Source of the DNA: a virus
Taxonomy: Duplodnaviria; Caudoviricetes
Virus record (IMG/VR): IMGVR_UViG_3300025150_000002
Coordinates: 96,001-160,000 of that record
Length of the DNA stretch: 64,000 nucleotides
Strand: one strand, 5' to 3'
Below the pieces are notes generated by a model. It was not told the DNA's origin and did not search any database. It saw nothing but the letters and a program-made list of their open reading frames with translations. Positions 14,032 through 33,659 of the stretch are shown here, piece after piece; within the stretch, counting starts at the first letter, position 1, and the number at the start of each line of letters is the position of its first letter. The position numbers and the translations under genes are program-made.

Positions 14032-17000
14032 CTAGTGCAATTCGTCCCATGTACGCCCCGCACGCGCGTCTGCGGTGAAAGGCACCCTCATTCCGGTCGC
14101 GACGCTCTCCATCGAGGTTTTCACCAATCCGCAGAGCTCCTCTTTCATGGCACGGGGCCCTTGGAAGATGAGTTCGTCGTGGACCTGAATCATGAACCGG
14201 AACTTGGCCCACAACTTCGACTCGGCGGGCCGCGAGTTGGCGACCTTATCGTTCCGGGCGTCGTAGAGCTTGATCATCGCCAACTTGATCAGATCCTGGC
14301 AGCTGTTGTGGGTGAAGAACCCCGCCGCGATGTAGGCATGATTGTCACCGTGAATCTCGATGTCATAGGTCGGTGACGATCCTACATGCTCGACCGAAAC
14401 CACCTTGTCCCACCCATATCCCAGCACCTCCTTGGGACCGGGCTCATCAATGTAGTCGAGAACGGCCTCAATCATGTTCTCGCCTGCGTTTCCTGTCCTG
14501 GCATGTCCGATGTAGGTCTGGATTCTACGGCGCATCCTTCGATCATCAAACGCTGTAGATGATCCCTGCCGCGAAGCGAGCGCAGGCGCTCTGGAGGCCA
14601 GCTCGGCCACAGCCGACACAAACGACCTAGGCAGCTCCCGCCTTGGAGCACGGGTCGCAATAAGCTGGAGAGCGCCCGCCAGGGTGGCCGCCTTCCTTGG
14701 GTGGCGAAGAGGGACCCACCTGTTGAAGGCCTGAAATCCACGATATGAGACATCAAGTCGATACTGCTTGGTCATCCCTCTCTTCTTGCCCGTTCGCGCC
14801 ACGTCGAGCTCGCGGATCGCGCAATCAATCCCGAGAGAACTGGCGAGTTTCCACGCACCTTCAACAAGCTCGCGAACGCGAGAAGAGTAGTTGATGGTCA
14901 GGGATGTATAGGTCTTCTGCTTGTAGCTGAGAACCGACCCGTCAGTGTCGATCAGACCGGCGAGCACAGCGCCTCGCAGTTCGGGACTGGCTGTGTAAGC
15001 CCACTTCGGGATCCTCTTAGCCTGCTTAGAAACGCAGTCCAACCCGAGGATCATCAGGTTTGAACGAGCGCGACTACTGTTACAAACCAGGTCCCTGACC
15101 TTTCCTCCGCGATTCGTATTCCTAAGTCCCCAGCGGAGCTTCTTGCGCGCTGTCTCGCCCTGCGACCTCAAAACCGACTCTTCTAGAGATTCAGGCCAGC
15201 CTGGATCTCTTGCCGATGCCGCCAGGGTAAACCCTTGGGATGACCCGTAGTAACCGTCACCGATGAGTGCACCGACCAAATATGCATCGTCGACGGACGC
15301 CCCATGATCGTCATCACCGCCTGCCGCCAGCACATCGTGCGTGGCTAGCATATCGCCCGAGTCGAGCTCCGACGTCTTGGTCCACACCATTCGCAAGCCA
15401 TCCATGGTCGCGAACCTGTGATCTGCAGAACAGGTGATGGTCCTGCCGCTCGACAGCGTTACCTTAAACACGTCTTTCACGCCGGAGTCGATGACGTCGT
15501 AGTCACTGGTGAATTTCTCGCCGTCGAAAATCGGCAGCCTGTCCGTCGCGAGGTCCTCGATGCTCACGTAGCCCTGCTCTGTGAGAACAGGAGTAGATGG
15601 AGTCACACACCCGCTGACGCGGAACTGGATCGCCTTAGTACCTGCGACGTAGTCATTCTTCTGCCAGTCGGTATCAAGCCGGCGCCGACGTCGCGCAATG
15701 TTGTAGGCGATGTAGTTGTCTTTGACGAGCTGGTTGATGGTCCGCTCATGCCAAGAGGCGATTCCAGGGTAGGCCTGATGCCAGAGCTCGATCAGCCGCT
15801 GGCCGTAACCGATCTGCGGGTTACCGTCCTCATCGAACAGACCTGCATAGATGCAGAACTTGGGTGCTCCCATGCGGTAAAGCAGCCCGAAGTTGCTGTC
15901 CAATACAGCAACACTGTTGCAAATCATCGCAGTTCGTTCGGGCTCGTAAACGTCGAACACTGGGGCCTCCCCAGCATCGGTCACGCTGCGAACTTTTGCG
16001 GTCCAAATTCCAGCGTCTCGATATGCCTTGATCTCGTCCGGTAGCACGTCCTCTAGTAGCTCCAGTCGAGTATCGCCAAATCGAACTGGGCTCTTCTTGC
16101 GGCGGATCACCTCGCGCAGCTTGTCTTTCCTCTTACGCTTGGTCTTGTCGTAGATCGATTCCAGTAGGACCTCTACGCCATCCAAGAACCGGTTGGCGTA
16201 ATCAGCGCTCTGTGGGGCCATGGCCTCCAGGAGCTTGTCAGACTTCTCAGTTGACACGAATCCGACGCGTTCAGCGAACCGCTCGATATCGCGCTGTCGT
16301 CTGACCGTCCAGCACCAGTAAGGTTGCTCTCCCTTTAGGGTGGGCCGCATTTCACTATGGATAAACCCGAGGATGTCGATGTTCATCATCTCGGCGTGGA
16401 TTTGACGAATTAGCTTCTCGGACTTGCTGGTATAGACGATCGCAAAGCTATTTCTCGCCTTTCCAACCGCCTTTACAGTACCGTCGCCCTCGAACAGAGC
16501 CCGGAAGAACTCGCGCTTCAGCGACCACGGTGCACTCCTCACACACCTCGGAATGTCCTTCTCACCAGAGCAGGATTTGAACCCGAGATGGGCCATCCAC
16601 AAATTCAGCTTCTTTGAGGCTACTGTATAGTGCGTAGCCTCCTTATCCAGTGGATGATGTTCAGTGATGGTCCTATCGTTTACCACCAACCTCCAACAGC
16701 CGATGAAATCCTCGACCATCTCTACTGAGCAGTCACCAAACCCGAAGGGCATCTGATAGTAACCGCGAGACTCATCAGTTACCATCCGCCCCTCGGACAC
16801 GAAGTAGCCGAAAAACCGAGCAACCTCTGGCGTCATCTCGGTCGGAAGATCAATATCCTTGAGCGCATTCCCTCCGACCACATCAATCGATGGTAGGGCC
16901 ACGTCCTTTCCGTGAACATCACGACCGGTCATGATCAGGCATGGGTCATCGGGCCGCAGATCAGCAGCCATCACTCGTTCGACCTTTCCGCCTCGCATCA

Positions 17001-20000
17001 CAAAGAATTCGTGGTCCGGCGTGGCCGTGAGCTTGATCCCGTATTCGAGGTTCACATCGACGACGGAACGAACTCCAGGGCTCCAGGTCGAGTCGGTGTA
17101 GCGAATCTGACCATCGTCAGACATGATCCCGATACGCTTCTTGAACCTGTCCGGCTCGGTCACCACCTCGCCCATCTCAAGCAGCCCGTGCTCTGTAAGG
17201 AGCATGGCGTCAGCGGTCACGCAGTTCTTTGCCAACGGATTACGCTTAACTTGGACGTCCTCTGCAGTTCGTTGGTGAAGGTCGACGTGTCGGCAGCGCT
17301 TCTGATGCTCGATGTTTGACAGGCCGCACCCGGGACAAAGCGCCGGGTTGCTGTCGGTGTCCGGCAACCACCCCTCAGGCTGCCACGTGTGGCCGCACTC
17401 GTTGCAGGACCAGTTCAGGTAGCGATCGCATGCTGCGCCGTCCTTGTTCCTGCAATGACCGGTGTTCAAGAACACCTCGATCATGTTGAGCTCGTTTGCC
17501 AGGTGGGCTGCCATCCGCAACTCCATCTGCGATTGGCCGCTCACCAACCCATTCTCTAGGACATACGTGTGTGTCCCCTCGACGGTGATCTGCCAAACCT
17601 CCCGCGAACCCACCGGAGTAATCGACACGATTCGATGATTGTCTGATTTCGCGCGGCCTCGATTTGCGCAGGACCTACCGCAGAACCTTGCTGCGCTCTT
17701 CGTAGGCAGGAAATCCTGGTTACATGTTAAGCACGCTTTAGTCCCTGGCTTACCAGACGTAAAACACTCGCGGGAGCAGAACCGAGTCTTTTTTCCGTCA
17801 CTTCTGTAATAGACCACCCCGCACCGGGCGCAGGTCAGGTCACAGCCGTTCTCGCGTGACTTGTGATAGCACGCTCTGCTACAGAACTTACCGTCTGCAG
17901 AAGGTGGTTGGTAAAACGCACTGCCGCAGGAAGCGCAGTTAGTCACGGCTCCCTTCAGGTTCCCGTGATTTGGGTTTCCGTCTGCTTTATAGGATCGACG
18001 GTTCTTCCTCTGGCCTTCGACTAATTGCTGCTTCTTTCGCCGGCGCTGAGATAGGGTGGCCGCGTCCCACCAGCGCTGAGCCCCCTGCCCCCTGTTCTCT
18101 CGGCTGGGCAACCACCGCAGATTAGCACCTCTGTTATCAAAGGTGTCTCCGTTGATGTGGTCGGCATCGTGGCCCTCAGGACGTTCCCCGTGAAAGTGCT
18201 CAGCGAGTACGATGTGCTGAAACGCAGCAACCCCGCGAACCGCCCACATCTTATATCTACCTAGCTGTGTCTCGCGCACGTGAGCCAAGCGATCCCCTGG
18301 ATTCAAGTACTTGGTCTCAACGAGACGTCCTCCGTATGTCATCCATTTATGATCCTCGGTACAAATCACCGATGACCCGTCTTCTAGAACCAGTTCTACG
18401 CACGGAGCAATACCGACCTTGCCACCGGCAACCACTGGTCGAATCTCTAGACTTCTCCCATCGGCAGATGACAACACCGGAGTCTCTGTAGCTGCTACCT
18501 CTTCAATCGGCATGACCCCATTGACGGTGACAATCGGGGTCCCAGCGACCAAACAGTAGTCGGCGTCTATCAGGCATAGCTGAGATCGTTCCTCGTCGTA
18601 ATCGTTCTCTAGATGGGCGCAGAATGCCTTTCGGATCAGATCCTTGTCCCGTGGTTGGTTCATAAGATTCACGGGGTCCGCCGAGTTGTGATTGACGAAC
18701 CCTTGAGCCAGGTAGCTGTGGTCACCCTCTACGGTGATGTCCCAGACATCTTCGACGCTGACTGGAGTGATGCTGGTAACTCGTGCCCAAGTTCGGACGC
18801 GATTCTCTTGATCACCGTAGGGAGGGCCTTGTCGATCTGCTTCGTAGTGAACCTCACCACTCGGTAGCCAAGTTCCTTCGCCTTCTTCGCCTTCCGACGA
18901 TCCCTGGCCTTGGTCTTCTCGCACTTCCGGTGAAACTCGCCATCGACCTCGACCAGTAGTTTCTTTTCTGGCCAAGCGAAGTCCGCTTGCCAGTTCTTGA
19001 AGAAACAGAACAGACGCCGATGCGGGATTCCAGCCGCCGTCAAAGCTCGTGAGAGTCTCATCTCCCGACGATTGGCAGAAAAGGTTAGATGGGACTTCTC
19101 GATCTCCCCGCGCTCGATCAGAGCCTGCATGAACGATCCGCTCTGCTTGACCGCACTCGCTAGAGACATCAGTCTCTGATACGCCTCTACCAGGGAGGCA
19201 AACGCCTTGGCCGGGTCGGTCGACAGCTTCGATACTTGTGGACATAGCGCCGCAAGAGCTTTGTACTCGGTATCCGTGAGCCTGCTGATCCAGGACATCG
19301 TTCCGTGAGTGTGCGCTGAAATCCCGTGATGTCGCATGTCCATCAGGACAATGGATTCCCCCACCCCAAGCTGATCTGCGATCTCGACCGCCGACAGACC
19401 CCTGGACACCTCGGTCTCCAAAAGATTCTTGGGGAAGAACGCCTCCTCGTTCCTCTTGGATGCGCTCAGGAGCCTGCCGTGCTTCACTGCCAGGTCGTCG
19501 GAGAACTGCTTGTAGGTCTTGACCGCCCTGATCAGGGCCTGATGAGATACGCCGAAGGCTACCTTGGCCTGCTCTTGCGTCAGATTGCTGTCGACGAAGA
19601 TCCTCTTGAACGACGCCTTCGAGAGTATGAATCCCTTCGAGCGATCTCGGCGAACCCATGTCGGCTCGTCGGGAAGGATGTCCTCCAAGTCCGGGAGCTT
19701 GGTAGGGTTCCCCCGAAACAGTTCGGGGAACTCCCATCCGTACACTGCCTTGCAGGTCAAGCTGATCCCATCCGACAGCCCGTACAACTTGGCCTTCTTG
19801 TAGACCGGCCTCGGGTCCTCGGCGTAGACCCTGATGAACGAGGGTCGATCTAGCACCCAACGTCGTTGCCTGACGGGCCGCCTTAGTCTCACATACCTCG
19901 GCTCGAAGCAGCCGGTCCCCTCGTTCGAGGTCCTTGAGATCACGCCACCCATTGTTGGTGAGGAATCTGTGGTCCCTTGTGCATCTGATTCGATTTCCGT

Positions 20001-21417
20001 CATCGGTCACCACCTCGAACATCAGGTCTGGGCCCTTGTTGAACAGGTTCAACACTCGCCCCTCCCGACCCTCATGGGTGATGATCATAACATCAGTTCC
20101 TGCAAACCGACCAAGTTCTGAGATTCTGACTGAACGACGGAAGTTCTCTCCTCTCAATCGGATAGAGAGCTTTGATGTCCCAGAAATGCAGCTGAGGCGA
20201 CCAATGACGGTCCCCGTCTGTCTAAACCGAGCGTAGATCCGACCCTTGTTGTCTGGATCGTTGGCGAGCGAAATCAACTTCTTGCAGAAGCTGCTGTCGA
20301 TAACGCTGAGCGAACGATACTTCAGCAGCTTGCCGACCAGTGGAAACTGATCCTTGCGGTGTTTGATGGCCTTGTCGCCGGTACCGTACTGTTCGAGCTC
20401 CTCGTTGTAGTCGACACCTTTGGTGGGTAGCCCCAGCCCACCCTTCTCTGGCGGGTTGTAGAGGAAGTCGGACACCTGCTTAGGCGAGCGCAGATTGGGG
20501 ACCCAGCCAACAGTCTCCTTGAACTCGTTCAGGATCTCCTGCTGCTCTTTGTTGATCCGCTCCTGAACAGTGACCAGCCACTCCCAATCAATAAAGCAAC
20601 CAGTGATCTCCATCTCCATGAGGATCCGCTGGATCTTCATCTCGATCTTCCAGTAGATCTTCTCCAGGTCGGAGTAGACGCCGGGCGTGTCGTCTAGTGG
20701 TGAGCACCACTCGCCCTTGTGCTTGCGCGGAGGGTCCTGCTTCCGCATGGAGTTTATGGCCCATTTCCAGAGCCGATAGGTCCAGGCACAGTCGTCGGCA
20801 GCGTAAACGCCCAGAGGCTTCTTGTTCGCGAAGCCGAAGGTGGCTTGGCCCCCAAAGGCTTCACTGTAGGTGGTCATCTTGTGGCCGAAGACCTGATCGA
20901 CTCGTGGCTTCAGACCATAGCGCCTCAGCCGTTCGTCCGCGATGTAGTCCGCGAGCATGCTGTCAGCGATGACGTTGTTGACGATCAACGGCTCGTCGAG
21001 ACCGCTCTTTAGGTAGAGGAAGGCGTCGTCGAAGATACCGTTGTGGCGGACCGCAATGATGTGCTTGAGGTCCCACAACTCTCGAAGCTGAAGCATGGTG
21101 GAGCGCTGATCAACCGGTTCACGAAGCGCACGCACTTCGCCATCAACCGTGTGCTCCATCGTTCCGTCCGTAAACGGAAACCAGGCGCGAACTGGTCGCT
21201 GCGATGGATTCTTTTCGTTTGGGACGTAGAAGGCTACACCCTCTATACGATCCTTACGGGGCGACAGCCCTGTTGTTTCCAGGTCGTATGAAAAGACGCC
21301 TTCTTCTTCGGCGCGCTCAATCAGATACGGGACGGAGACATCGCAAGTATCGGTAGGGTCCCAGGAGTTACCTTCTTGGTTGGGCTTAACTTTAGCTTTG
21401 GACCTAGCCACCAACAC
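14032..21417 (-). CDS. polA: family A DNA polymerase precursor with four inteins
   Basis: 3'-5' exo YDLETTGL; spliced motifs IGRLS|SADPVNLMN, DADY|SQMELR (A), AKN|SNFGLLY (B), VSG|SCQDLIK, QVHDEL (C); about 741 aa after splicing. Confidence 0.95.
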   Translation of the reverse strand: MLVARSKAKVKPNQEGNSWDPTDTCDVSVPYLIERAEEEGVFSYDLETTGLSPRKDRIEGVAFYVPNEKNPSQRPVRAWFPFTDGTMEHTVDGEVRALREPVDQRSTMLQLRELWDLKHIIAVRHNGIFDDAFLYLKSGLDEPLIVNNVIADSMLADYIADERLRRYGLKPRVDQVFGHKMTTYSEAFGGQATFGFANKKPLGVYAADDCAWTYRLWKWAINSMRKQDPPRKHKGEWCSPLDDTPGVYSDLEKIYWKIEMKIQRILMEMEITGCFIDWEWLVTVQERINKEQQEILNEFKETVGWVPNLRSPKQVSDFLYNPPEKGGLGLPTKGVDYNEELEQYGTGDKAIKHRKDQFPLVGKLLKYRSLSVIDSSFCKKLISLANDPDNKGRIYARFRQTGTVIGRLSCISGTSKLSIRLRGENFRRSVRISELGRFAGTDVMIITHEGREGRVLNLFNKGPDLMFEVVTDDGNRIRCTRDHRFLTNNGWRDLKDLERGDRLLRAEVCETKAARQATTLGARSTLVHQGLRRGPEAGLQEGQVVRAVGWDQLDLQGSVRMGVPRTVSGEPYQAPGLGGHPSRRADMGSPRSLEGIHTLEGVVQEDLRRQQSDARAGQGSLRRISSGPDQGGQDLQAVLRRPGSEARQAPERIQEERGGVLPQESFGDRGVQGSVGGRDRRSAWGGGIHCPDGHATSRDFSAHSRNDVLDQQAHGYRVQSSCGAMSTSIEAVDRPGQGVCLPGRGVSETDVSSECGQAERIVHAGSDRARGDREVPSNLFCQSSGDETLTSFDGGWNPASASVLFLQELASGLRLARKETTGRGRWRVSPEVREDQGQGSSEGEEGEGTWLPSGEVHYEADRQGPPYGDQENRVRTWARVTSITPVSVEDVWDITVEGDHSYLAQGFVNHNSADPVNLMNQPRDKDLIRKAFCAHLENDYDEERSQLCLIDADYCLVAGTPIVTVNGVMPIEEVAATETPVLSSADGRSLEIRPVVAGGKVGIAPCVELVLEDGSSVICTEDHKWMTYGGRLVETKYLNPGDRLAHVRETQLGRYKMWAVRGVAAFQHIVLAEHFHGERPEGHDADHINGDTFDNRGANLRWLPSRENRGQGAQRWWDAATLSQRRRKKQQLVEGQRKNRRSYKADGNPNHGNLKGAVTNCASCGSAFYQPPSADGKFCSRACYHKSRENGCDLTCARCGVVYYRSDGKKTRFCSRECFTSGKPGTKACLTCNQDFLPTKSAARFCGRSCANRGRAKSDNHRIVSITPVGSREVWQITVEGTHTYVLENGLVSGQSQMELRMAAHLANELNMIEVFLNTGHCRNKDGAACDRYLNWSCNECGHTWQPEGWLPDTDSNPALCPGCGLSNIEHQKRCRHVDLHQRTAEDVQVKRNPLAKNCVTADAMLLTEHGLLEMGEVVTEPDRFKKRIGIMSDDGQIRYTDSTWSPGVRSVVDVNLEYGIKLTATPDHEFFVMRGGKVERVMAADLRPDDPCLIMTGRDVHGKDVALPSIDVVGGNALKDIDLPTEMTPEVARFFGYFVSEGRMVTDESRGYYQMPFGFGDCSVEMVEDFIGCWRLVVNDRTITEHHPLDKEATHYTVASKKLNLWMAHLGFKSCSGEKDIPRCVRSAPWSLKREFFRALFEGDGTVKAVGKARNSFAIVYTSKSEKLIRQIHAEMMNIDILGFIHSEMRPTLKGEQPYWCWTVRRQRDIERFAERVGFVSTEKSDKLLEAMAPQSADYANRFLDGVEVLLESIYDKTKRKRKDKLREVIRRKKSPVRFGDTRLELLEDVLPDEIKAYRDAGIWTAKVRSVTDAGEAPVFDVYEPERTAMICNSVAVLDSNFGLLYRMGAPKFCIYAGLFDEDGNPQIGYGQRLIELWHQAYPGIASWHERTINQLVKDNYIAYNIARRRRRLDTDWQKNDYVAGTKAIQFRVSGCVTPSTPVLTEQGYVSIEDLATDRLPIFDGEKFTSDYDVIDSGVKDVFKVTLSSGRTITCSADHRFATMDGLRMVWTKTSELDSGDMLATHDVLAAGGDDDHGASVDDAYLVGALIGDGYYGSSQGFTLAASARDPGWPESLEESVLRSQGETARKKLRWGLRNTNRGGKVRDLVCNSSRARSNLMILGLDCVSKQAKRIPKWAYTASPELRGAVLAGLIDTDGSVLSYKQKTYTSLTINYSSRVRELVEGAWKLASSLGIDCAIRELDVARTGKKRGMTKQYRLDVSYRGFQAFNRWVPLRHPRKAATLAGALQLIATRAPRRELPRSFVSAVAELASRAPALASRQGSSTAFDDRRMRRRIQTYIGHARTGNAGENMIEAVLDYIDEPGPKEVLGYGWDKVVSVEHVGSSPTYDIEIHGDNHAYIAAGFFTHNSCQDLIKLAMIKLYDARNDKVANSRPAESKLWAKFRFMIQVHDELIFQGPRAMKEELCGLVKTSMESVATGMRVPFTADARAGRTWDELH
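14305..15609 (-). mobile_element. PolA intein 4 with LAGLIDADG (435 aa)
   Basis: CVTPST...CSADHRF...LVGALIGDG / LAGLIDTDG...FFTHN/S. Confidence 0.93.
15898..17223 (-). mobile_element. PolA intein 3 with LAGLIDADG, C-terminal Asp (442 aa)
   Basis: CVTADA...ATPDHEF...FFGYFVSEG / FFRALFEGDG...NSVAVLD/S in motif B. Confidence 0.88.
17533..18555 (-). mobile_element. PolA intein 2 with HNH, C-terminal Gln (341 aa)
   Basis: CLVAGT...CTEDHKW...DHINGDTFDNRGANL...three CxxC..FCSRxC repeats...ENGLVSGQ/S in motif A. Confidence 0.9.
18685..20190 (-). mobile_element. PolA intein 1 (502 aa); endonuclease region is non-protein-like filler in this frame
   Basis: CISGTS...CTRDHRF...VWDITVEGDHSYLAQGFVNHN/S. 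Confidence 0.92.
18729..20003 (-). CDS. Vsr/DUF559-like PD-(D/E)xK endonuclease with HTH, nested in the +1 frame of PolA intein 1
   Basis: WQADFAWPEKKLLVEVDGEFH...RDRRK...LGYRVVRFT; HTH LSAVEIADQLGVGESIV. Real start uncertain (19952 or 19892). Confidence 0.85.
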   Translation of the reverse strand: MTEIESDAQGTTDSSPTMGGVISRTSNEGTGCFEPRYVRLRRPVRQRRWVLDRPSFIRVYAEDPRPVYKKAKLYGLSDGISLTCKAVYGWEFPELFRGNPTKLPDLEDILPDEPTWVRRDRSKGFILSKASFKRIFVDSNLTQEQAKVAFGVSHQALIRAVKTYKQFSDDLAVKHGRLLSASKRNEEAFFPKNLLETEVSRGLSAVEIADQLGVGESIVLMDMRHHGISAHTHGTMSWISRLTDTEYKALAALCPQVSKLSTDPAKAFASLVEAYQRLMSLASAVKQSGSFMQALIERGEIEKSHLTFSANRREMRLSRALTAAGIPHRRLFCFFKNWQADFAWPEKKLLVEVDGEFHRKCEKTKARDRRKAKKAKELGYRVVRFTTKQIDKALPTVIKRIASELGHELPASLQSASKMSGTSP

Positions 21418-22455: not shown

Positions 22456-24117
22456 TTATACCCGAATAACCTGACGCTCTTGCAGGACTTTCTTTAGCAG
22501 GTCGTAGAACGTAGAGAGGAGCCCACTTACGTCCTGTACAACCACGGTGTTATCGTAGAAGCGCTTCACATCATCACCCCCAACGCCAATACCGAAAACG
22601 GTGATTCCAGCAGACTCGATTCGGCTAATCGAAGTTCGAAGATGAGCGGCCAGAACCTCATTGTTCTCTGGTTCTGAAGCCGGTGTCCCGTCTGAGAACA
22701 CCATGAGAACGGGTCGATCGCCGTGGTTGGGCTTGGAGAGCATTCGCTTTGCGGCCCACAACACAGCCTCACCATCAATGTTCTCGGAGCAATGCTCGAA
22801 GAGCGCAAGTGATAGAAAGTTCGCTCGACAGCTTCGGAACGGCCTGTTGTACGGCTTGATGACTAGGTGACTGAGTGCTCGCAGCCGATCAAACTCGGGC
22901 GCCGGAGCAGGAGTCCGCTTGGACGTCGTGAACGCGAGCACCTCGTTGGGGACCCCAATGGCGTCCAAGGTGGATGAGACAGCGGCGGCAGCCTGGGCCG
23001 CAACAAACAACCTGGTTCGGAAGACCAGCGGTTCTCCTGGAGTGGCCGGGTCTCGTGCTGGCCTCGTCATAGACGCCGAACAGTCAACGAGGATCGTCAC
23101 AATGGACCGATTGGACAATGTCGGTCGGCTTCTTTTGTGAATCCGGTCATCGCCAACCCCGTACCGCCACAACCTTCGGTCGTCTAGCCGTCCTCGGCGC
23201 TGAAACCGCTCAACACCGAGCCCAGTAGACCGGAATTGCATCATCAGACGACGACGAAGAATTGGTGCCGTCTTCCGAACCCCATCGAAGAACACCCCAT
23301 ATAGATTGTCGATGGGGAATGATGGCCGGCGAATCATGTCCGATCTGTCTTTATCTGTCTTAGCCCGGTAGGAGCCCGGCGTCTCACCTCGGCTGATCTG
23401 TTGTATGGACTGCTTACGCTCGGTGGCCGGGCTCACGACGAACTCGTCGAGCTCCCTGGCCGCCGCGTTTTCGATAGCTTCCCGTGACTTAGCCCGAGAC
23501 TTCTTGATCGGCTCCCAGCACCAGGTGTCTGCGACTTGTTTCGCAATCTTGACCACATCCATCGTCGATTTAGTGGCTTGAGCCGCCGTCGCGATCTCAC
23601 CGATCTCATCAAAGTAGGAGGATAGGTCTCCTCCCAGTTGTGTAATAGCGTCGGCCGGGTTGTAGCCATAGGCTACGAGGCTCAGGGCGCACAGCGCGCG
23701 CGACCGCCTGTTTAGCTCATCGTCCGACTTGTTCTCGGCAATCCGGGCCACCGCTCGACGATTCGATCGTTCGAGGTTCTCCCCACAACCAAGCCACTCG
23801 TTGCTGACGAGCCGCTCGATGCGCCCATCCTCGATAGCGTCAACTATCTTGCGGACCAGCTTGCGCTTGACCGACGAAAGTGCGCCCGGATCGGTATGCA
23901 GGATGTGCCCCAGCTCGTGATCGCAATCACTGCGCAGGTCCTCGATCGCTTCATCAGATAGCTGATCTGGAACGGGCCGCAAGTGAATGACCCTGTTAGT
24001 CAGGTCAGCCCACGGGGCGTCGGCATCGAATAAAACGGTTACATCAGTCCCGGACAACGTAGACGCAACAACCTCCTGCGCCGACATTAGGTGACCAGGA
24101 TTGATCGCGCGGTTCAC
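22456..24117 (-). CDS. CobT-like VWA protein
   Basis: N-terminal HELGH, GRLDDRRL, MIDAS ILVDCSASM, VFSDGTP; GTG start overlaps the RNase H stop. Confidence 0.85.
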   Translation of the reverse strand: MNRAINPGHLMSAQEVVASTLSGTDVTVLFDADAPWADLTNRVIHLRPVPDQLSDEAIEDLRSDCDHELGHILHTDPGALSSVKRKLVRKIVDAIEDGRIERLVSNEWLGCGENLERSNRRAVARIAENKSDDELNRRSRALCALSLVAYGYNPADAITQLGGDLSSYFDEIGEIATAAQATKSTMDVVKIAKQVADTWCWEPIKKSRAKSREAIENAAARELDEFVVSPATERKQSIQQISRGETPGSYRAKTDKDRSDMIRRPSFPIDNLYGVFFDGVRKTAPILRRRLMMQFRSTGLGVERFQRRGRLDDRRLWRYGVGDDRIHKRSRPTLSNRSIVTILVDCSASMTRPARDPATPGEPLVFRTRLFVAAQAAAAVSSTLDAIGVPNEVLAFTTSKRTPAPAPEFDRLRALSHLVIKPYNRPFRSCRANFLSLALFEHCSENIDGEAVLWAAKRMLSKPNHGDRPVLMVFSDGTPASEPENNEVLAAHLRTSISRIESAGITVFGIGVGGDDVKRFYDNTVVVQDVSGLLSTFYDLLKKVLQERQVIRV

Positions 24118-24668
24118 CAGGTGTCCTCGTCCCCCCAGAAATCCCAATCGACCGTTGTGTGTACCGTCTTCTGGTTGTTACAGAGCTGGTCTGCCTCGTT
24201 GTTGTAAGTGGTGAAGTCGGAGTGATCCTTCTGGTGACCGCCGTGATGGATAAACTTGATCGATGTGAACTTCCGCTCATCGATGACCCGCCGAATCTCA
24301 GCAAGTGCGTCGGCTACATTATCGCTGTTCACGCGCCAGGCACCGGCCAGCCACGCTCCTGTGCCGATGTAGTCGTGGACTACGACAAGCGGGCGCTCTG
24401 GGTTCACGACGCTCAGCCCGATCAGCAGCGACCAAAGTTCGGGTCCGATGTTCGCGCTCTTCGCGTCACGGTGCTCAGCGATACGCGTGATCGTCTTGGC
24501 GAACGGGTCAAGGATCACCGCCGCATGCCAGCCGCTGGAGCTTCCGTCGATGAACATCCAGATGTTCGAGTGATCGAGCTTGCGATCCGCACGGAGCCGA
24601 AGCCAGTTTGTCTTGTATTTGACCTTCGCGGCCTTTTCGCTAGTGGTCTCTACGAACTTGATGATCAT
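24114..24668 (-). CDS. ribonuclease HI-like protein
   Basis: FIDGSSS, GPELWSL, VVHDYIG, GHQ...YNNEADQLC. Confidence 0.82.
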   Translation of the reverse strand: MIIKFVETTSEKAAKVKYKTNWLRLRADRKLDHSNIWMFIDGSSSGWHAAVILDPFAKTITRIAEHRDAKSANIGPELWSLLIGLSVVNPERPLVVVHDYIGTGAWLAGAWRVNSDNVADALAEIRRVIDERKFTSIKFIHHGGHQKDHSDFTTYNNEADQLCNNQKTVHTTVDWDFWGDEDTW

Positions 24669-24760
24669 TCTGGGCCGCCGAGGTCTTTGAGCTTCCTCTT
24701 GATCGCCTGCTTCTTGGCAGCGCTCAGCCGGTCGATGAACAGGGTGCCGTCGAACATCAT
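24665..24760 (-). pseudogene. orphan duplicate of the peptide deformylase C-terminus (31 codons)
   Basis: MMFDGTLFIDRLSAAKKQAIKRKLKDLGGPE* versus def HLMGTLFIDRLSPARKHAIKGKLRRL. Confidence 0.85.
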
Positions 24761-25383
24761 CTGGCCTCTTTTACCCGTCGAATGGCGTCACCGATGATCA
24801 GCATCTCATCAGGGGTGAATCGGTCACCCCTGGCGATGTTGCATTCAACACAACAACTAACTACATTATCCGATTCGTAACCACGCTTGTTATCTAGGCG
24901 ATCGAGGCCGATGCCGGCTTCCACATTGTTCGTCAACTTGCAGTAGTAGCACGGCGCTTGAACCAGCTCTTCGTATAGGTCTCGCTTCAATGCCCACTTT
25001 CTACCGGACCGCTGAGCGTTAGCTCTGACATAGTTAAATCGTCCACCACCACGCTTTGTCTTAGCAGCGGACTTTCTCTGCGACTCGCGTCGAGCTTCAG
25101 CGGACGCTTCCAGATAGTAGGAACCCTTTTCACTCTTGAGGTATCGCACTACCCCTCGTTTGTTTCTTTCGAGGTGATCCTTACACCTTGTCTTTCCCTC
25201 GACAGCAGCGGTATTACAGTCGTAGCAGATGCCTGATGCCCGACGTGCTCCTCGCGCGTCGACGTAGCGTTTGTGATAGGCGCGATGGTAGTCAAGGTGC
25301 TCTTGGCACCGTGCGTATCCGGAAACAGGTGGGCTTGTACAGTCCCTGCAGCGCTTCCGTCTACTCGTTCTTCCCTTCGCCAT
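24757..25383 (-). CDS. HNH homing endonuclease
   Basis: CYYC...GIGLDRLDNKRGYESDNVVSCCVECN; N-terminal CxxC..C..H repeats. Confidence 0.85.
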   Translation of the reverse strand: MAKGRTSRRKRCRDCTSPPVSGYARCQEHLDYHRAYHKRYVDARGARRASGICYDCNTAAVEGKTRCKDHLERNKRGVVRYLKSEKGSYYLEASAEARRESQRKSAAKTKRGGGRFNYVRANAQRSGRKWALKRDLYEELVQAPCYYCKLTNNVEAGIGLDRLDNKRGYESDNVVSCCVECNIARGDRFTPDEMLIIGDAIRRVKEAR

Positions 25384-25912
25384 GCTTTCTCCTCAGTCTG
25401 CGCAGCTTGCCTTTGATGGCATGCTTTCGAGCTGGAGAGAGCCTATCGATAAAGAGTGTACCCATCAAGTGATCGTATTCGTGCAGAAAGCACCGAGCGG
25501 GTAGCCCATCAAGCGAAAATTCGTTTGTCTCTCCGTCCGTGTTCATGCAGCGGATCTTGATTTCCCTTGGACGAACCACCTTTCCGGATATGCCCGGCAC
25601 CGAGAGACATGCCTCGTAGGCCTCGTTCGTGGACTTAGACCTTTCGATGATCTCAGGGTTCAGAAAAATCAGTCCGTCTCGTCTTTGACCGGAGAGGTTT
25701 ATTGCCAAGACCCGAGCGTGCCACGCAACCTGTGGCGCAGCCAGCCCAATACCTTTGGCCTCGTGCATGAGGTCCATAAGCGCGAGGCACTTTCGCCGGA
25801 TGTCGTCTGTTATCTCCGTTACGGGCTGGGACTTGATCCTCAGGCGCCTATCTGGGTAAGTGAGGATCTCCCACTCGTTACCACCCACAGCTGGGTCGCT
25901 CGTGTCGGTCAT
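25361..25912 (-). CDS. def: peptide deformylase
   Basis: GIGLAAPQV, EACLSV, HEYDHL motifs. Confidence 0.96.
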   Translation of the reverse strand: MTDTSDPAVGGNEWEILTYPDRRLRIKSQPVTEITDDIRRKCLALMDLMHEAKGIGLAAPQVAWHARVLAINLSGQRRDGLIFLNPEIIERSKSTNEAYEACLSVPGISGKVVRPREIKIRCMNTDGETNEFSLDGLPARCFLHEYDHLMGTLFIDRLSPARKHAIKGKLRRLRRKHGEGKNE

Positions 25913-27105
25913 TGCTTCCTTGCCGATGTGCCGTAGATCCGGTTCACGAAATCATCGATGTTCTGGAGATCCGAACTCGTCGCTCGGTTCTGAACCGCAA
26001 ACCTCCAGGCATCCTCAGGAGTAAACCCGGCCGCCACGTTGGAAGCAACGGCCAGAGTACGGCGCATTGTCATGCAGAGCATGATCTTGTCGTTAGCGAA
26101 CGCTCGTCGCAGCTCCGTGGCCGCCTTGATTATCAAGGCGGCTTTAGCCTTGGGCAGGCCTGTTCGCCTACACAGGATGAGCTGCTCGGTCTCGTGCGGG
26201 AGGTAGTCGACCTTGATGTAGTTCGGCCAACGATCGAGGAAGGCCTCGTCCTGGAACGCCCGGCCGTGGTGGATACCACGATCATCGCCACGTCCCTCGG
26301 TGTTCTGTGTTCCTACAGCTCGGAAGTTCCTATGAGGTACGATCACGCCCTCATACCCCATTCGAGCGATCCGCATGTCCTTACGGTCCAGGGCCCGATA
26401 GAGGGAGTAGCATGCCTCTGCTGGGGCCGCGTCAACTTCGTCGAGGAGAAGCCCGTAGCCCTTGCCGACAGCCTCGGCGCAGGATGATGGGGTGAACACC
26501 GTATTGCCATCGACCAGATCGATGGCCCCCTCGAAATCGTCGGCGGACATCGAAGGAGTGCAGGAGACGATCTCCAGTCGTTGATCCCTCTTAGAAAAGA
26601 GACGTTCGACAGCCTCGGTTTTCCCAGACCCAGAGGGTCCTATCAGGAGAACCGGTAACCCGCGCGCCACGAACGATTCCATATGGGGAAACCATTCCGG
26701 CTCTACATAGAAGCTCGGATCAACGACCCCTTCAGTCTCGGCGGGTAAAGCGCCAGGGATGGGCGAGAACGTCTGCCGATTGAGCGAGCCGTCTGCGGCA
26801 ACGTAGAACGCGACCCCGCGCCGGGCCGCAGCCCTCACGAAGTATGGATGAATGATCAGTCCGGCCAGATCGGCAATCGAGAGGAGCCGAACAGCATCCT
26901 CAGGAGAGATCGTGGACTTTCCATGATTGAGCAGCTTCGAGACGAGCTCGTTGCAGTGATCCGGGTCCAGTACGGACTCCGCGTTCCTGCGAACAAGTTC
27001 GTTGAGCACGCCGAACGGTGATGTGGCGAGACCAGCTAGACCCTCAGAGTCAGCCGTAAGCTGCTCCAGCAGATTGGTCGCCGGTCGTGCTCGGCTCTTA
27101 GACAT
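25909..27105 (-). CDS. CobS/MoxR-like AAA+ ATPase
   Basis: GPSGSGKT, LLLDEVD, GTQNT, AFLDRW; putative partner of the CobT-like VWA protein. Confidence 0.88.
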   Translation of the reverse strand: MSKSRARPATNLLEQLTADSEGLAGLATSPFGVLNELVRRNAESVLDPDHCNELVSKLLNHGKSTISPEDAVRLLSIADLAGLIIHPYFVRAAARRGVAFYVAADGSLNRQTFSPIPGALPAETEGVVDPSFYVEPEWFPHMESFVARGLPVLLIGPSGSGKTEAVERLFSKRDQRLEIVSCTPSMSADDFEGAIDLVDGNTVFTPSSCAEAVGKGYGLLLDEVDAAPAEACYSLYRALDRKDMRIARMGYEGVIVPHRNFRAVGTQNTEGRGDDRGIHHGRAFQDEAFLDRWPNYIKVDYLPHETEQLILCRRTGLPKAKAALIIKAATELRRAFANDKIMLCMTMRRTLAVASNVAAGFTPEDAWRFAVQNRATSSDLQNIDDFVNRIYGTSARKQ

Positions 27106-30261: not shown

Positions 30262-30378
30262 GTGACTGTGAGACACGGAGACCGACGGAAGACTCTTACT
30301 GCTCCAGAGTACGCAGCCTGGTCGGCCATGCGATCACGCTGTAGTGGCGTTGGTATTGGCGCATGGGAAGACGCATGA
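30262..30378 (+). pseudogene. truncated remnant of a phage HNH-associated endonuclease
   Basis: RHG...TAPEYAAWSAMRSRC matches the common HG..T.EY..W..M..RC phage nuclease motif, then stops after 38 aa. Confidence 0.55.
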
Positions 30379-30446
30379 TTCCCCCAGCAGCACACCTCAC
30401 CGGGGGCACCACCGGTAAGTTCATCGTCGTCGAAGGCAACATCGGG
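30375..30446 (+). pseudogene. relic 5' end of deoxynucleoside kinase, fused in frame to the HNH ORF
   Basis: MIPPAAHLTGGTTGKFIVVEGNIG versus downstream dNK MPIDIPAACSHLSDAQRGAFIVVEGNVG. Confidence 0.85.
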
Positions 30447-30500
30447 CCTGTTGACGACGGTATGGCGTCAATGTTACCTTCTCGTCTTCGGAGGTGGCAG

Positions 30501-31004
30501 ATGTCGCAAAGGCAGCGAAAGCCTTGGACCGAGGACCGTAAGCGCCAAGCGGTCGACCTCTACGAGACTGGCGTCTCAATGCATGCCGTGGCCAGAGCCA
30601 TGGTCACGTCGGTGCGCCATGTTCATCGTGTGCTGAACGAGCGCGGTGTGGTCAGGTCGAAGTCAGACCTTTACCGAGGAGACGGAAACCCGGCCTGGAA
30701 AGACGGTAGGCGCGTCGTTGGCGGCTATGTCTACCTCTACAGACCCGAGAGTCCGATGGCGACAGAGGCCGGCTACGTGGCTGAGCATCGGCTAGTCGTA
30801 TCTGAGTCTGTTGGTCGTCCTCTCAAGCGTGGTGAGGTCGTGCATCACAAGAATGGCGACAAGGCAGATAACCGACTGGAGAACTTGGAACTCTTTGCGT
30901 CGAACGCCGAGCATCTGCGTCACGAGCTAACGGGCCGGTGCCCGGAATGGACCGAAGACGGGAAGCGGCGCCTCCGAGAGGCGCGCAACAGAGGTCGGGG
31001 GTAG
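30501..31004 (+). CDS. HNH homing endonuclease with HTH
   Basis: GYVAEHRLVV...VVHHKNGDKADNRLENLEL; GGAGG before ATG 30501. Confidence 0.9.
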   Translation: MSQRQRKPWTEDRKRQAVDLYETGVSMHAVARAMVTSVRHVHRVLNERGVVRSKSDLYRGDGNPAWKDGRRVVGGYVYLYRPESPMATEAGYVAEHRLVVSESVGRPLKRGEVVHHKNGDKADNRLENLELFASNAEHLRHELTGRCPEWTEDGKRRLREARNRGRG

Positions 31005-31009
31005 CAGCG

Positions 31010-31711
31010 ATGCCGATTGACATACCCGCTGCTTGCTCACATCTGAGCGACGCGCAGCGAGGCGCTTTCATAGTCGTAGAAGGGAATGTGGGGGTTGGCA
31101 AAAGCTCGTTCAGCGAATCACTGACTCGGCTTCGCGGCGAAGGTGCGCAGCTGTTCCCCGAGCCAGTTGATCGGCCCGCCTTCCGTGTGCTCCTCGACCG
31201 CTACTACAAAGAACCCGCACGCTGGGGATTCACGTTCCAGATGTACGCGCTCAAGGAGCGGTTCAAGCAGCACACCCTCGCAGCGGAACTTGTAGCCCAC
31301 GGGATCGACGTAGTCCAGGACAGGAGTATCTACGCTGACGGCTGCTTCGGTCGCCTCGTCCACCTCGACAAGAATATGACCGTAGAGGAGTGGGACATCT
31401 ACGCTGAGACCTTCGGCGCGCTCAAGCGCTTTCTGCGCTACCCCGATCTACTTGTCTACCTACGGGCCGATCCGGAGATTTGCCATGATCGAACCAAACG
31501 GCGAGGACGCAAGGAGGAGTCGGGTGTCCCTCTCGATTACCTGAGACGCCTGCACGACGAACACGAAGCCCTGGTGGATGCCATGAGTCGCTTCACTCGT
31601 GTAGTCACCTTCGACTGGAACGAGTTCCAGGAGGCTGATCTGGTCAATGGGAAAATCGACGAGGCGCTCAACGAAGAAGTGCGGTTCATGCGTGATTTCA
31701 CGCGACTGTAA
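31010..31711 (+). CDS. deoxynucleoside kinase (dNK family)
   Basis: VEGNVGVGKS, QDRSIYAD, YLRADPEIC..R..RGR..E. Confidence 0.93.
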   Translation: MPIDIPAACSHLSDAQRGAFIVVEGNVGVGKSSFSESLTRLRGEGAQLFPEPVDRPAFRVLLDRYYKEPARWGFTFQMYALKERFKQHTLAAELVAHGIDVVQDRSIYADGCFGRLVHLDKNMTVEEWDIYAETFGALKRFLRYPDLLVYLRADPEICHDRTKRRGRKEESGVPLDYLRRLHDEHEALVDAMSRFTRVVTFDWNEFQEADLVNGKIDEALNEEVRFMRDFTRL

Positions 31712-32183: not shown

Positions 32184-32216
32184 ATGGAGCTCATGCGTGT
32201 ATGGTGCGGCCCATGA
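32184..32216 (+). pseudogene. relic 5' end of thymidine kinase
   Basis: MELMRVWCGP* versus tdk MQMLKVFCGPM; its TGA overlaps the ATG of the LAGLIDADG gene. Confidence 0.7.
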
Positions 32217-33067
32217 GCCACAGTCCAAGGCCGATCATCTATCCTGAGATGGGTCGAGAGCTCGCCTACTTCCTCGGCCTCTTCCTCGCAGACGGCTGTT
32301 TCGAGCGCCGAGGCCGGGACTACGATTACAGCACTGTTGCCATCTCTCTGCGCGAGTCGGATGGTTACATCCTTGATGAACTAGGTGAGTGGTTGAGCGG
32401 ATACAAGCTGCGTCCTCGGCTGGGACAAATGAAGAGGGGTCCATCGGCATCAGCCGCAGCCGAGGATCGCAAAAGGTTGCGGTTACACTCAAAACTCTTT
32501 GTCGAGTACCTGACTTCAGAGCTCGGAATCCCAGTGCAGAACAAGGGCAAGCTTATGGGAATGCCGTCTCAGATCAACAATGAGATGGCTTCAGACTTCA
32601 TTCGTGGGGTGTTCGACGGCGATGGTCACATCGCCTATCTTCCAAGTGGAAAGTTCTACGTATGTACTATGGGAGCGCTACTGCTACTGGAGGACATAGC
32701 GCGCAAGCTGGCCGAATTGACCAGTGTTAGGCTATTAAGGCCGACAAAGCACAATTCTGGGGATGTTCACATCCTGCACTATTACAGTCGCGCCGAAGCC
32801 CACGCCGTGTGCGAATTTCTCTACCAGGACCACCCGAGGTTCTTCATGGATCGAAAGCGCAATACCTGGCTGAGCTTTGTCGAGGAGAGATCATTGCCCA
32901 TCAAGCGACCCGTTCGGTGGGATGACGATGAGACGGAAAGACTTATGGCGCTCAAGCAAGATCGCACGAGCCATGGGGTGATAGCCGAGGTCCTGGGTAG
33001 ATCAACCGCGTCTGTGACACAGCGCCTCCACGCCCTGAGAAAGTCGGGAACCTATGCAGATGCTTAA
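32213..33067 (+). CDS. free-standing double-motif LAGLIDADG homing endonuclease
   Basis: LAYFLGLFLADGCF and DFIRGVFDGDGHI; C-terminal HTH/Myb-like segment. Confidence 0.92.
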   Translation: MSHSPRPIIYPEMGRELAYFLGLFLADGCFERRGRDYDYSTVAISLRESDGYILDELGEWLSGYKLRPRLGQMKRGPSASAAAEDRKRLRLHSKLFVEYLTSELGIPVQNKGKLMGMPSQINNEMASDFIRGVFDGDGHIAYLPSGKFYVCTMGALLLLEDIARKLAELTSVRLLRPTKHNSGDVHILHYYSRAEAHAVCEFLYQDHPRFFMDRKRNTWLSFVEERSLPIKRPVRWDDDETERLMALKQDRTSHGVIAEVLGRSTASVTQRLHALRKSGTYADA

Positions 33068-33659
33068 AGTCTTCTGCGGTCCGATGTGCGCCGCCAAAAC
33101 CACCGGGGCACTACACGCGGCACGGCGCTATGCCCGTCATGGGAAGCGCGTGGTCTTGATAAGACCGGCCGGTAGTCGCCGTGCTCACGAGGGCGATCCT
33201 GAGGCTCTGTCGACCAAGAATGGTGAGTCGTTTCCTAGCTTCGACGTAGAGCGGGTCGAGGACATCTTCGAGCGCTCACGGGGTGCAGACGTAGTCTGGC
33301 TCGACGAGCCGAACCACTTCAGGCACGAGTCTAGGTTATTGCACATCATCCCTGAGATAAGAAGGTCGTCCATTATCCTTGTCTCCGGTCTAGGGGCCAC
33401 ATCAGAGCTAGAGCCCTTTGGAAGCTCAATGCCGTTCTTTCTTGCTACGGCCGATGATGTGCAATGGAGGTCGGCAGACTGCGACCTCTGCCAAACCCAC
33501 GGTACAGCGACAAGGAGCCTCTACATCGGAGAGGCTCCTAAGTCAGGTCAGTTGAAGGCCGGTGGAGCGGAGAGCTATAGACCCGTGTGTCCGAAGTGCT
33601 GGACGTCCGCAACGGCGCTCAGCCCATCAGAGCGATGGGCCGTGTTCGCCGCGTCCTAG
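33054..33659 (+). CDS. tdk: thymidine kinase
   Basis: CGPMCAAKT, VWLDEPNHF, VSGL, CDLC...YRPVCPKCW lasso/zinc motif. Confidence 0.92.
   Translation: MQMLKVFCGPMCAAKTTGALHAARRYARHGKRVVLIRPAGSRRAHEGDPEALSTKNGESFPSFDVERVEDIFERSRGADVVWLDEPNHFRHESRLLHIIPEIRRSSIILVSGLGATSELEPFGSSMPFFLATADDVQWRSADCDLCQTHGTATRSLYIGEAPKSGQLKAGGAESYRPVCPKCWTSATALSPSERWAVFAAS

Follow-up and report, generated by a model that had tools for sequence, protein, structure and literature searches.

An HNH endonuclease gene and a probable replacement gene end at the peptide deformylase locus of a giant groundwater phage

The deformylase locus

The window analysed here is a stretch of 64,000 nucleotides (nt) that forms part of a 203.5 kb IMG/VR virus record (IMGVR_UViG_3300025150_000002) of a giant phage from groundwater. 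On its minus strand, the peptide deformylase gene (def) is followed by an open reading frame (ORF) for an HNH endonuclease and then by a 31-codon ORF that resembles the end of def itself. These genes belong to an overlapping string that consists, in order, of a cobS-like gene, def, the HNH ORF, the 31-codon ORF, an RNase H-like gene (rnh) and a cobT-like gene (Table 1). The stop codon of the cobS-like gene overlaps the def start by 4 nt, and the position of this upstream neighbour is constant in all relatives. The deformylase has all three metal-site motifs, GIGLAAPQ, EACLS and HEYDH, which are aligned with those of its homologues (G-x-G-x-A-A-x-Q, E-x-C-L-S and H-E-x-x-H), and its C-terminal end reads HEYDHLMGTLFIDRLSPARKHAIKGKLRRLRRKHGEGKNE. 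The HNH gene is not fused to def but begins in another frame, with its ATG placed 23 nt before the def stop, giving an overlap of 23 nt. The last ten def codons coincide with the HNH leader. This extension of def, beyond KLRRL, contains the Shine-Dalgarno-like sequence GAGGAG, 5 nt ahead of the HNH ATG, together with the HNH start itself, so that the HNH leader doubles as the def end.

The 31-codon ORF reads MMFDGTLFIDRLSAAKKQAIKRKLKDLGGPE. Its ATG (24760-24758) overlaps the TGA of the HNH gene (24759-24757), and its TGA (24667-24665) overlaps the ATG of the next gene (24668-24666), so that both ATGA overlaps described in the first-pass annotation of this DNA are present. A Shine-Dalgarno-like AAGAGG is located 4 nt upstream of its ATG. 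The ORF begins with ATGATG(TTC) at the junction, and from GAC GGC onward (24665-24751) it consists of a def tail of the native type that ends in LGGPE and a stop codon. Gene callers report an ORF of 30-32 aa at this position, both here and in the P0026 contig, a related sequence described below. The two tails share 17 of 23 residues (BLASTP E 4e-9 in a single comparison), and 13 of these 17 identical residues are specified by different codons, in agreement with the earlier remark on differing synonymous codons. The layout proposed there, namely an HNH gene inserted at the def 3′ end, a replacement tail on def and the old tail surviving as a mini-ORF, is found in every feature. We refer to the mini-ORF as the relic hereafter. 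The gene after it had been named RNase H; its PHROG match agrees with this name, but the evidence is weak, with the Pfam RVT_3 match falling under the cut-off. The true start of the cobT-like gene is probably at 24117, overlapping the rnh stop, as in the gene call of 553 aa on identical DNA. A scan of the locus for promoters and terminators gave no signal exceeding the shuffled background.

The same phage recurs across many groundwater and aquifer assemblies, among them a 355.7 kb NCBI contig. At least eight independently assembled contigs, including this NCBI record, are identical across the region save for two mismatches in one contig, and contigs of four further sequencing runs span both junctions with zero differences. 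Because independent assemblies are identical and both junctions are bridged, an assembly artefact is ruled out as the origin of the arrangement.

Table 1. Features of the def locus in the window, listed in their order along the minus strand
Feature	Coordinates	Strand	Evidence or remark
cobS-like AAA+ ATPase gene	25909..27105	-	Pfam AAA_5 (E 8e-19) and CbbQ_C
def	25361-25912	-	183 aa; Pfam Pep_deformylase (E 2e-47), profile positions 3-155 of 156
def body, codons 1-149 up to HEYDHL (metal-binding motif 3)	25466..25912	-	alignment A1; invariant H144, E145 and H148
Replacement def tail, codons 150-173 (MGTLFIDRLSPARKHAIKGKLRRL)	25394..25465	-	in frame with the body, low GC content at third codon positions, diverged from every native tail
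def tail extension, RRKHGEGKNE and stop in place of native GGPE and stop	25361..25393	-	sequence
HNH endonuclease gene	24757-25383	-	208 aa; PHROG, PacI similarity, predicted fold
Relic mini-ORF, 31 codons	24665-24760	-	tail similarity; gene callers
RNase H-like gene (rnh)	24114..24668	-	PHROG 531 RNase H (E 7.5e-9); Pfam RVT_3 (E 0.0027), below cut-off
cobT-like VWA gene, last of the coupled string	22456..24147	-	Pfam CobT_C (E 3e-22)

Native and replacement tails of def

About 40 def homologues with 64-78% identity were found in metagenomes, and the counts from alignment A1 cover the 31 close ones. Among these, 25 end in KLKRLGGPE; the relic ends in KLKDLGGPE, and the window def ends in KLRRLRRKHGEGKNE. 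In the five HNH-less relatives for which DNA is at hand (L003/L004, L014, L094, L179 and L182), cobS, def and rnh follow one another with neither an HNH gene nor a mini-ORF between them. The def genes of these relatives end in LGGPE, and their TGA overlaps the start of rnh, whose homologues are ORFs of 179-182 aa (L003, L014, L094, L179 and L182). The relic thus corresponds to the native def tail of HNH-less relatives, as the first-pass annotation had predicted, and none of these relatives carries the upstream-type tail. Because their def stops overlap the rnh start in the same manner, the overlap between the relic and rnh represents the native def-rnh junction. The earlier proposal that the relic keeps translational coupling therefore holds as far as the overlap with rnh is concerned, but the overlap is an inherited one. 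No HNH gene is called in a further record, L008, but its DNA is identical to that of the window, and the difference lies in gene calling only.

The tails were compared over a stretch of 72 nt that starts with the codon following HL and extends to KLxxL. The relic has 0.81 nt identity to L182, the nearest HNH-less relative, with 15 of 19 same-residue codons identical, whereas the in-frame tail of the window def has 0.56. Native tails compared with each other show 0.61-0.81 nt identity (147/260 same-residue codons identical). The corresponding values for the in-frame tail are 0.47-0.64 against the native tails (31/99 codons, natives pooled) and 0.56 against its own relic (4/17 codons). Expressed as divergence, the carrier tail differs from the native tails at 36-53% of the 72 positions, in addition to the codon after HL. 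The divergence of the relic from L182 is no greater than that of the def body, and the relic peptide matches the C-terminus of P0002 with 23 of 29 residues identical (E 2e-7).

The new tail (about 0.5) and the HNH gene (0.55) have a low GC content at third codon positions (GC3), compared with the relic ORF (0.84), rnh (0.76) and the def body (about 0.7). The new tail therefore groups compositionally with the HNH gene. It had been called a recoded tail, and its codons do differ; however, "diverged, probably donor-derived" describes it better, considering its low, HNH-like GC3 and the amino-acid changes that it also contains. On the right-hand junction, homology to native def restarts at (T)TC GAC GGC, which places the insertion point immediately after the HEYDHL codons. 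The replacement tails of the window and of L005, another HNH-bearing lineage, have unusual codons in common (CAC TTG, GAT AGG and TCT CCA GCT), where native tails use CTN, GAC CGN and AGC. The residue after HL is Met, Thr or Ser in all five def genes that are followed by an HNH gene, and Asp or Glu in most HNH-less ones.

Several additional observations concern the def tails. The HNH-less L179 def (3001-3525; P0011) combines the native LGGPE end with the carrier-type codons CAC TTG ATG GGC (HLMG) where the target site is presumed to lie. Such an allele could be resistant by nature, or it could have lost the HNH gene via recombination between the two tail copies. The LGGPE end with its stop is encoded as CTN GGN GGN CCN GAR TGA in about 25 relatives (alignment A1; L003 5490-5516), and in some lineages these codons include a ribosome-binding site of the GGAGG type for rnh, whose start overlaps them. 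The needs of the downstream gene may be the reason why LGGPE is conserved. Further atypical def tails occur in alignment A1 (P0034, P0041, P0006, P0025 and P0044), ending in KLKGKNK, KLRDSK or LEDHYGR. The GKNK end resembles GEGKNE of the window, and the P0044 def is followed by an overlapping ORF of 178 aa. These five may be further carriers.

The HNH nuclease and its association with def

The HNH protein consists of an N-terminal part with two CxxC...C..H modules and a C-terminal nuclease domain. It matches PHROG 3322, 1035 and 3118 (endonuclease/HNH) with E values from 8e-11 to 3e-6, and no Pfam model matched it. The best sequence match is PacI (phmmer, E 9e-4). An AlphaFold model with a predicted local distance difference test (pLDDT) score of 88 gave PacI (Foldseek E 1.7e-4, probability 1.00) and the Gme HNH nickase as top matches. 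The model thus supports a predicted beta-beta-alpha-metal nuclease fold. PacI (PDB 3LDY) is thus the top match in both sequence and fold; however, it is only 17% identical to the phage protein, lacks a counterpart of the N-terminal CxxC modules, and is a restriction enzyme rather than the nuclease of a mobile element. Unlike the classical His-Asn-His arrangement, the nuclease motif is a DRLDN...N variant. The ORF is intact and conserved across 12 homologues, in which the Cys and Asn positions are invariant.

In a tblastn search, the nuclease domain was 49% identical to HNH genes of E. coli siphophages. The search with the HNH protein and def against deposited phages gave distant matches only and no def-HNH pair. 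A second, distant HNH homologue is present in the same phage (L002 961-1821; G000:C1, ~25.2-26.1 kb). This protein of 286 aa has 40% identity over the nuclease domain and several CxxC modules, and its gene is located between structural genes, away from def.

The HNH family is small, with 13 proteins, and is closely associated with def. Six of the seven close homologue lineages with a known context begin 14-26 nt inside the def end, and they represent three unrelated phage types; P0130 is the sole HNH homologue that does not adjoin def. Among the relatives of the window, L005 and the P0026 contig carry the gene, in each case placed between def and the gene that follows, and it is absent from the five HNH-less relatives named above. 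The P0026 contig has a def of 182 aa with an atypical tail, an HNH gene of 206 aa whose product is 59% identical to that of the window, and a 32-aa ORF with 4-nt overlaps at both ends, followed by more genes. In L005, def has yet another atypical tail, and the homologous HNH gene begins 26 nt ahead of the def stop. An ORF of 31-32 aa follows the HNH gene in these carriers wherever the contig extends far enough. Homologues with 49-53% identity begin 14-26 nt inside the def end of T4-like phages (L174-176 and L192) and of a low-GC phage (L193), all of which share no other similarity with the window. No relic tail was found at the def-HNH loci of the T4-like phages and L193.

The three HNH-bearing alleles are scattered across a tree of the def body, in which most forks are unresolved. 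P0009 is sister to the native-tailed P0010 in this tree (support 100/96), on very short branches. A megablast search of the region against cultured and deposited phages returned no match, and neither did IMG/VR searches with the cobS-like protein and with P0034. Searching IMG/VR and the JGI metagenomes with the def alignment yielded at least one close relative in each, and bacterial def genes share the pattern. The alignment of the C-terminal half of def, searched against GTDB genomes, matched only bacterial def genes with at most 55% identity and no phage relatives.

A mirror image of the arrangement was observed in L016 (IMGVR_UViG_3300032053_009476, 2510-3995), where a relic of the def head is followed by an HNH gene and by a complete def with a replaced head. 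The relic head comprises 54 codons with an intact frame and ends in GIGLAAPQVV and a stop. The HNH homologue of 251 aa has 34% identity and three CxxC modules. In the complete def, the first 55-60 codons are diverged (GIGLSASQVGW), and the junction lies at motif 1, GIGLAAPQ. Compared with the HNH-less L015, nt identity is 0.865 for the relic head, 0.59 for the new head and 0.83-0.92 for the body, with the rise from 0.59 to 0.83-0.92 occurring across codons 50-65. The GC3 values are 0.69, 0.51, 0.45 and 0.64 for the relic, the new head, the HNH gene and the body, respectively. Judging from these sequences, the same logic of gene-end replacement operates from the 5′ side, at metal-site motif 1.

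The body of the window def is itself mosaic in sliding identity. L005 and L182 are the most similar relatives over codons 1-60 (0.74-0.85 nt identity), and over codons 86-135 it is L003, which reaches 0.82-0.87 across codons 100-130 versus 0.60-0.75 for the others. This pattern suggests repeated recombination within def among these phages, and the mosaic stretches are possibly old co-conversion tracts. The divergence between L005 and L014 (0.75-0.80) is too great for a sharp boundary to be drawn.

Gene-end replacement as a probable mode of homing

Taken together, the locus very probably contains a def-specific free-standing HNH homing endonuclease that carries a rescue gene end and has inserted in the 3′ end of def. 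The mobile unit is, with similarly high probability, the diverged def tail plus the HNH gene, a phage counterpart of the mobile endonuclease ORFs (mORFs) of fungal mitochondria. Since the new tail is fused in frame to the body, the product would be a full-length deformylase with a basic C-terminal helix, and no splicing would be needed. The idea of intron-less homing in which the element supplies the gene end, first raised from the window alone, gains support from the HNH homologues at the def 3′ end of unrelated phages and from the mirror case at the 5′ end.

During a mixed infection, the nuclease would cut HNH-less def alleles near the sequence that codes for the boundary between motif 3 and the tail, between HExxH-L and D-G. 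The HNH-bearing genome would then serve as the template for repair of the break: homology on the left would be provided by the def body, the probable upstream arm, and homology on the right by the relic tail together with rnh. Repair would copy the new tail and the HNH gene from the carrier into the recipient. The carrier def would escape cutting through its tail, which is different at ~44% of its positions, the codon following HL (Asp/Glu to Met, Thr or Ser) among them, and the relic copy would escape because the HNH 3′ end takes the place of its upstream half-site. Provided that the relic acts as the right arm, the recipient's own functional tail would be kept or renewed as a relic at each invasion, so that undecayed relics would be expected even without selection for the peptide. 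The intact frame of the relic and its coupling to rnh are most simply seen as inherited features that keep downstream translation going. The earlier suggestion of a ribosome-binding peptide finds no support here.

The closest known parallels are the mORF gene hybrids of fungal mitochondria, which have been described for atp6, atp9, cox2 and nad3 of Glomus sp. (Beaudet et al. 2013, PMC3630166) and for atp6 of Allomyces macrogynus (Paquin et al. 1994, as cited in PMC3630166). In both systems, an endonuclease ORF lies within the 3′ part of a conserved gene, a foreign C-terminal piece is in frame with the gene body, and the native C-terminus persists downstream. The native relic is also closer to relatives than the inserted copy in both (91-98% versus 64-81% in Glomus (PMC3630166), and 81% versus 56% in the phage). 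The phage case differs in its genome, which is not an organelle's, in its target gene def, and in its nuclease, which is HNH instead of LAGLIDADG or GIY-YIG. Moreover, the phage nuclease is a separate, frame-shifted ORF with a 23-nt overlap, whereas the endonuclease ORF is in phase in atp6 and nad3; the atp9 and cox2 endonuclease ORFs of Glomus are likewise unfused, so fusion is not universal there (PMC3630166). A relic that forms an ORF with stop/start overlaps to both neighbours is another difference of the phage locus.

The free-standing homing endonucleases of T4-like phages (Seg and Mob; PMC2988022) resemble the present nuclease in that they lie beside or inside conserved phage genes and occur sporadically among relatives. 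Flanking DNA is co-converted in the T4-like phages (PMC2988022), and the identity gradient in L016 and the mosaic def of the window may be traces of such co-conversion. The starts of T4 segC, segF, mobA and mobC overlap the upstream ORF by 11-24 bp (PMC2988022), as compared with 23 bp here, and such overlaps are thought to hold nuclease translation low (PMC2988022). Insertions that split a gene are known as well, namely mobE in nrdA of Aeh1 and mobA in gene 60 of T4 (PMC2988022). The word stem "duplicat" is absent from this review of T4 homing (PMC2988022). In the T4 cases, the target gene is intact or is split into two working pieces (PMC2988022). The def gene here, unlike these, owes its completeness to a replacement end that was probably imported, and the old end survives as a leftover.

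Synthetic home-and-rescue and cleave-and-rescue drives combine a nuclease that acts on an essential gene with a recoded, cleavage-resistant copy of the part of that gene which is cut, so that carriers remain functional and immune. The likeness to the phage element is one of logic only, because the drives are engineered, CRISPR-guided and used in animals, whereas the phage element is natural and its nuclease is guided by protein. Our literature search for a phage endonuclease with a duplicated or replaced gene end, or with a link to def, found none among the papers searched, which does not disprove that one exists. As far as we could find, the form of the mORF layout seen here, in a phage, with an HNH nuclease in a separate frame, with def as its apparent target and with a relic linked by overlaps to its neighbours, would be new.

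Several points weigh against the proposed homing of a gene end. The cut site is placed from the right-hand junction alone, and the left boundary of the imported DNA is unplaceable owing to the mosaic def body and to an identity of just 70-80% with the relatives used for comparison. The three HNH-bearing lineages have replacement tails that are unlike one another (window versus L005, 0.62 nt identity), and the amino acids in the distal part of the new tail of L005 (SPAKKLSIKKKL) are the same as in the native tails of P0010 and P0030, the nearest relatives of L005. Part of a replacement tail may therefore be local rather than imported. Both of the latter facts would also be expected if the def tail had been duplicated in tandem in place and had drifted, with an unrelated nuclease inserted later between the copies and no gene end that travels. 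We consider such an origin very improbable. The new tail shares 4 of 17 codons with its own relic, fewer than native tails share across lineages (147/260), and its GC3 fits the HNH gene and not the host genes. No relative with a duplicated tail but without the HNH gene was found, and the same HNH family is present at the def ends of unrelated phages and at the replaced def head in L016. The mirror case makes the combination of an in-place duplication and a chance insertion very unlikely.

No HNH-less variant of this phage, and no joint that bypasses the HNH gene, was found in the identical contigs and four runs, although contigs drop rare variants; the nuclease could at present be inactive or domesticated. 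A past homing event, now fixed as an immobile passenger or as a nuclease with another role, would leave the layout as a fossil. This would agree with the lack of polymorphism, which extends to a 2025 hot-spring sample, with the failure of Pfam HNH models to match, and with the variant nuclease motif. It seems rather unlikely, however, in view of the intact and conserved ORF with its invariant Cys and Asn residues, the confidently predicted fold, the undecayed relic and junctions, and the scattering of HNH-bearing alleles among HNH-less ones in the def tree.

A different possibility, which is compatible with homing and would add a function to it, is that the relic is under selection for its product or its translation. 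The C-terminal helix of E. coli peptide deformylase binds the ribosome near uL22, and a 31-aa helix peptide might compete with deformylase for this docking site; alternatively, translation of the mini-ORF might deliver ribosomes to rnh. The intact frame, the AAGAGG sequence and the ATGA overlaps at both ends would fit such selection, as would the 32-aa ORF with the same two 4-nt overlaps in the P0026 lineage despite its diverged HNH protein (59% identity) and the divergence of the relic from L182, which does not exceed that of the def body. Nevertheless, the same intactness is expected without selection if the recipient's functional tail becomes the downstream arm at each homing. The relic head of L016 is just as intact, a relic is missing entirely from the loci of the T4-like phages and L193, and the sequence evidence comes from a single readable relic. 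We therefore regard a selected relic as improbable. A more far-reaching reading, which we think unlikely, is that of a natural, modular home-and-rescue drive that acts on catalytic-motif codons of an auxiliary gene from either side, at motif 3 together with a new tail and at motif 1 together with a new head. The relic would then be kept as a translated mini-gene that either acts as a ribosome relay to the downstream gene or yields a helix peptide which blocks the place where deformylase docks on host ribosomes.

On the preferred interpretation, homing by a def-specific nuclease with its own gene end, a homing endonuclease of a phage is able to enter the interior of a conserved gene with neither intron nor intein, by bringing along a diverged, presumably cut-resistant gene end. 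Fungal mitochondrial mORFs show the same solution, which was reinvented in synthetic home-and-rescue drives. A small HNH family specialised on phage def, with inferred targets at two catalytic motifs, would offer substrates for biochemistry. The interpretation would also account for odd C-terminal variants of phage deformylases and for short "orphan" ORFs in annotations of huge phages.

Other homing elements were observed elsewhere in the window. An HNH_3 ORF (30363-31004, plus strand) starts with ...GKFIVVEGNIG, a copy of the P-loop start of deoxynucleoside kinase (dNK), and is followed by a complete dNK gene (30938-31711, plus strand) that contains GAFIVVEGNVGVGKS. In L003, the dNK gene adjoins a methylase gene with no HNH gene. 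The sequence from 30363 to 31711 looks like the same kind of gene-end replacement, here at a 5′ end. A LAGLIDADG_3 ORF (32201-33067, plus strand) is located directly ahead of the thymidine kinase gene (tdk, 33054-33659) and overlaps it; the Pfam domains were confirmed. Together with def, the dNK and tdk cases suggest that gene-end replacement is a common route to the mosaicism of huge-phage genes. The family-A DNA polymerase gene (14032-21417, minus strand) has 2461 codons; precomputed Pfam matches on identical DNA place several inteins in it, with domains of the HNH_3 and LAGLIDADG types, while the L003 version of the polymerase has 1147 aa and one LAGLIDADG. The genome of the window phage is heavily colonised by homing elements.

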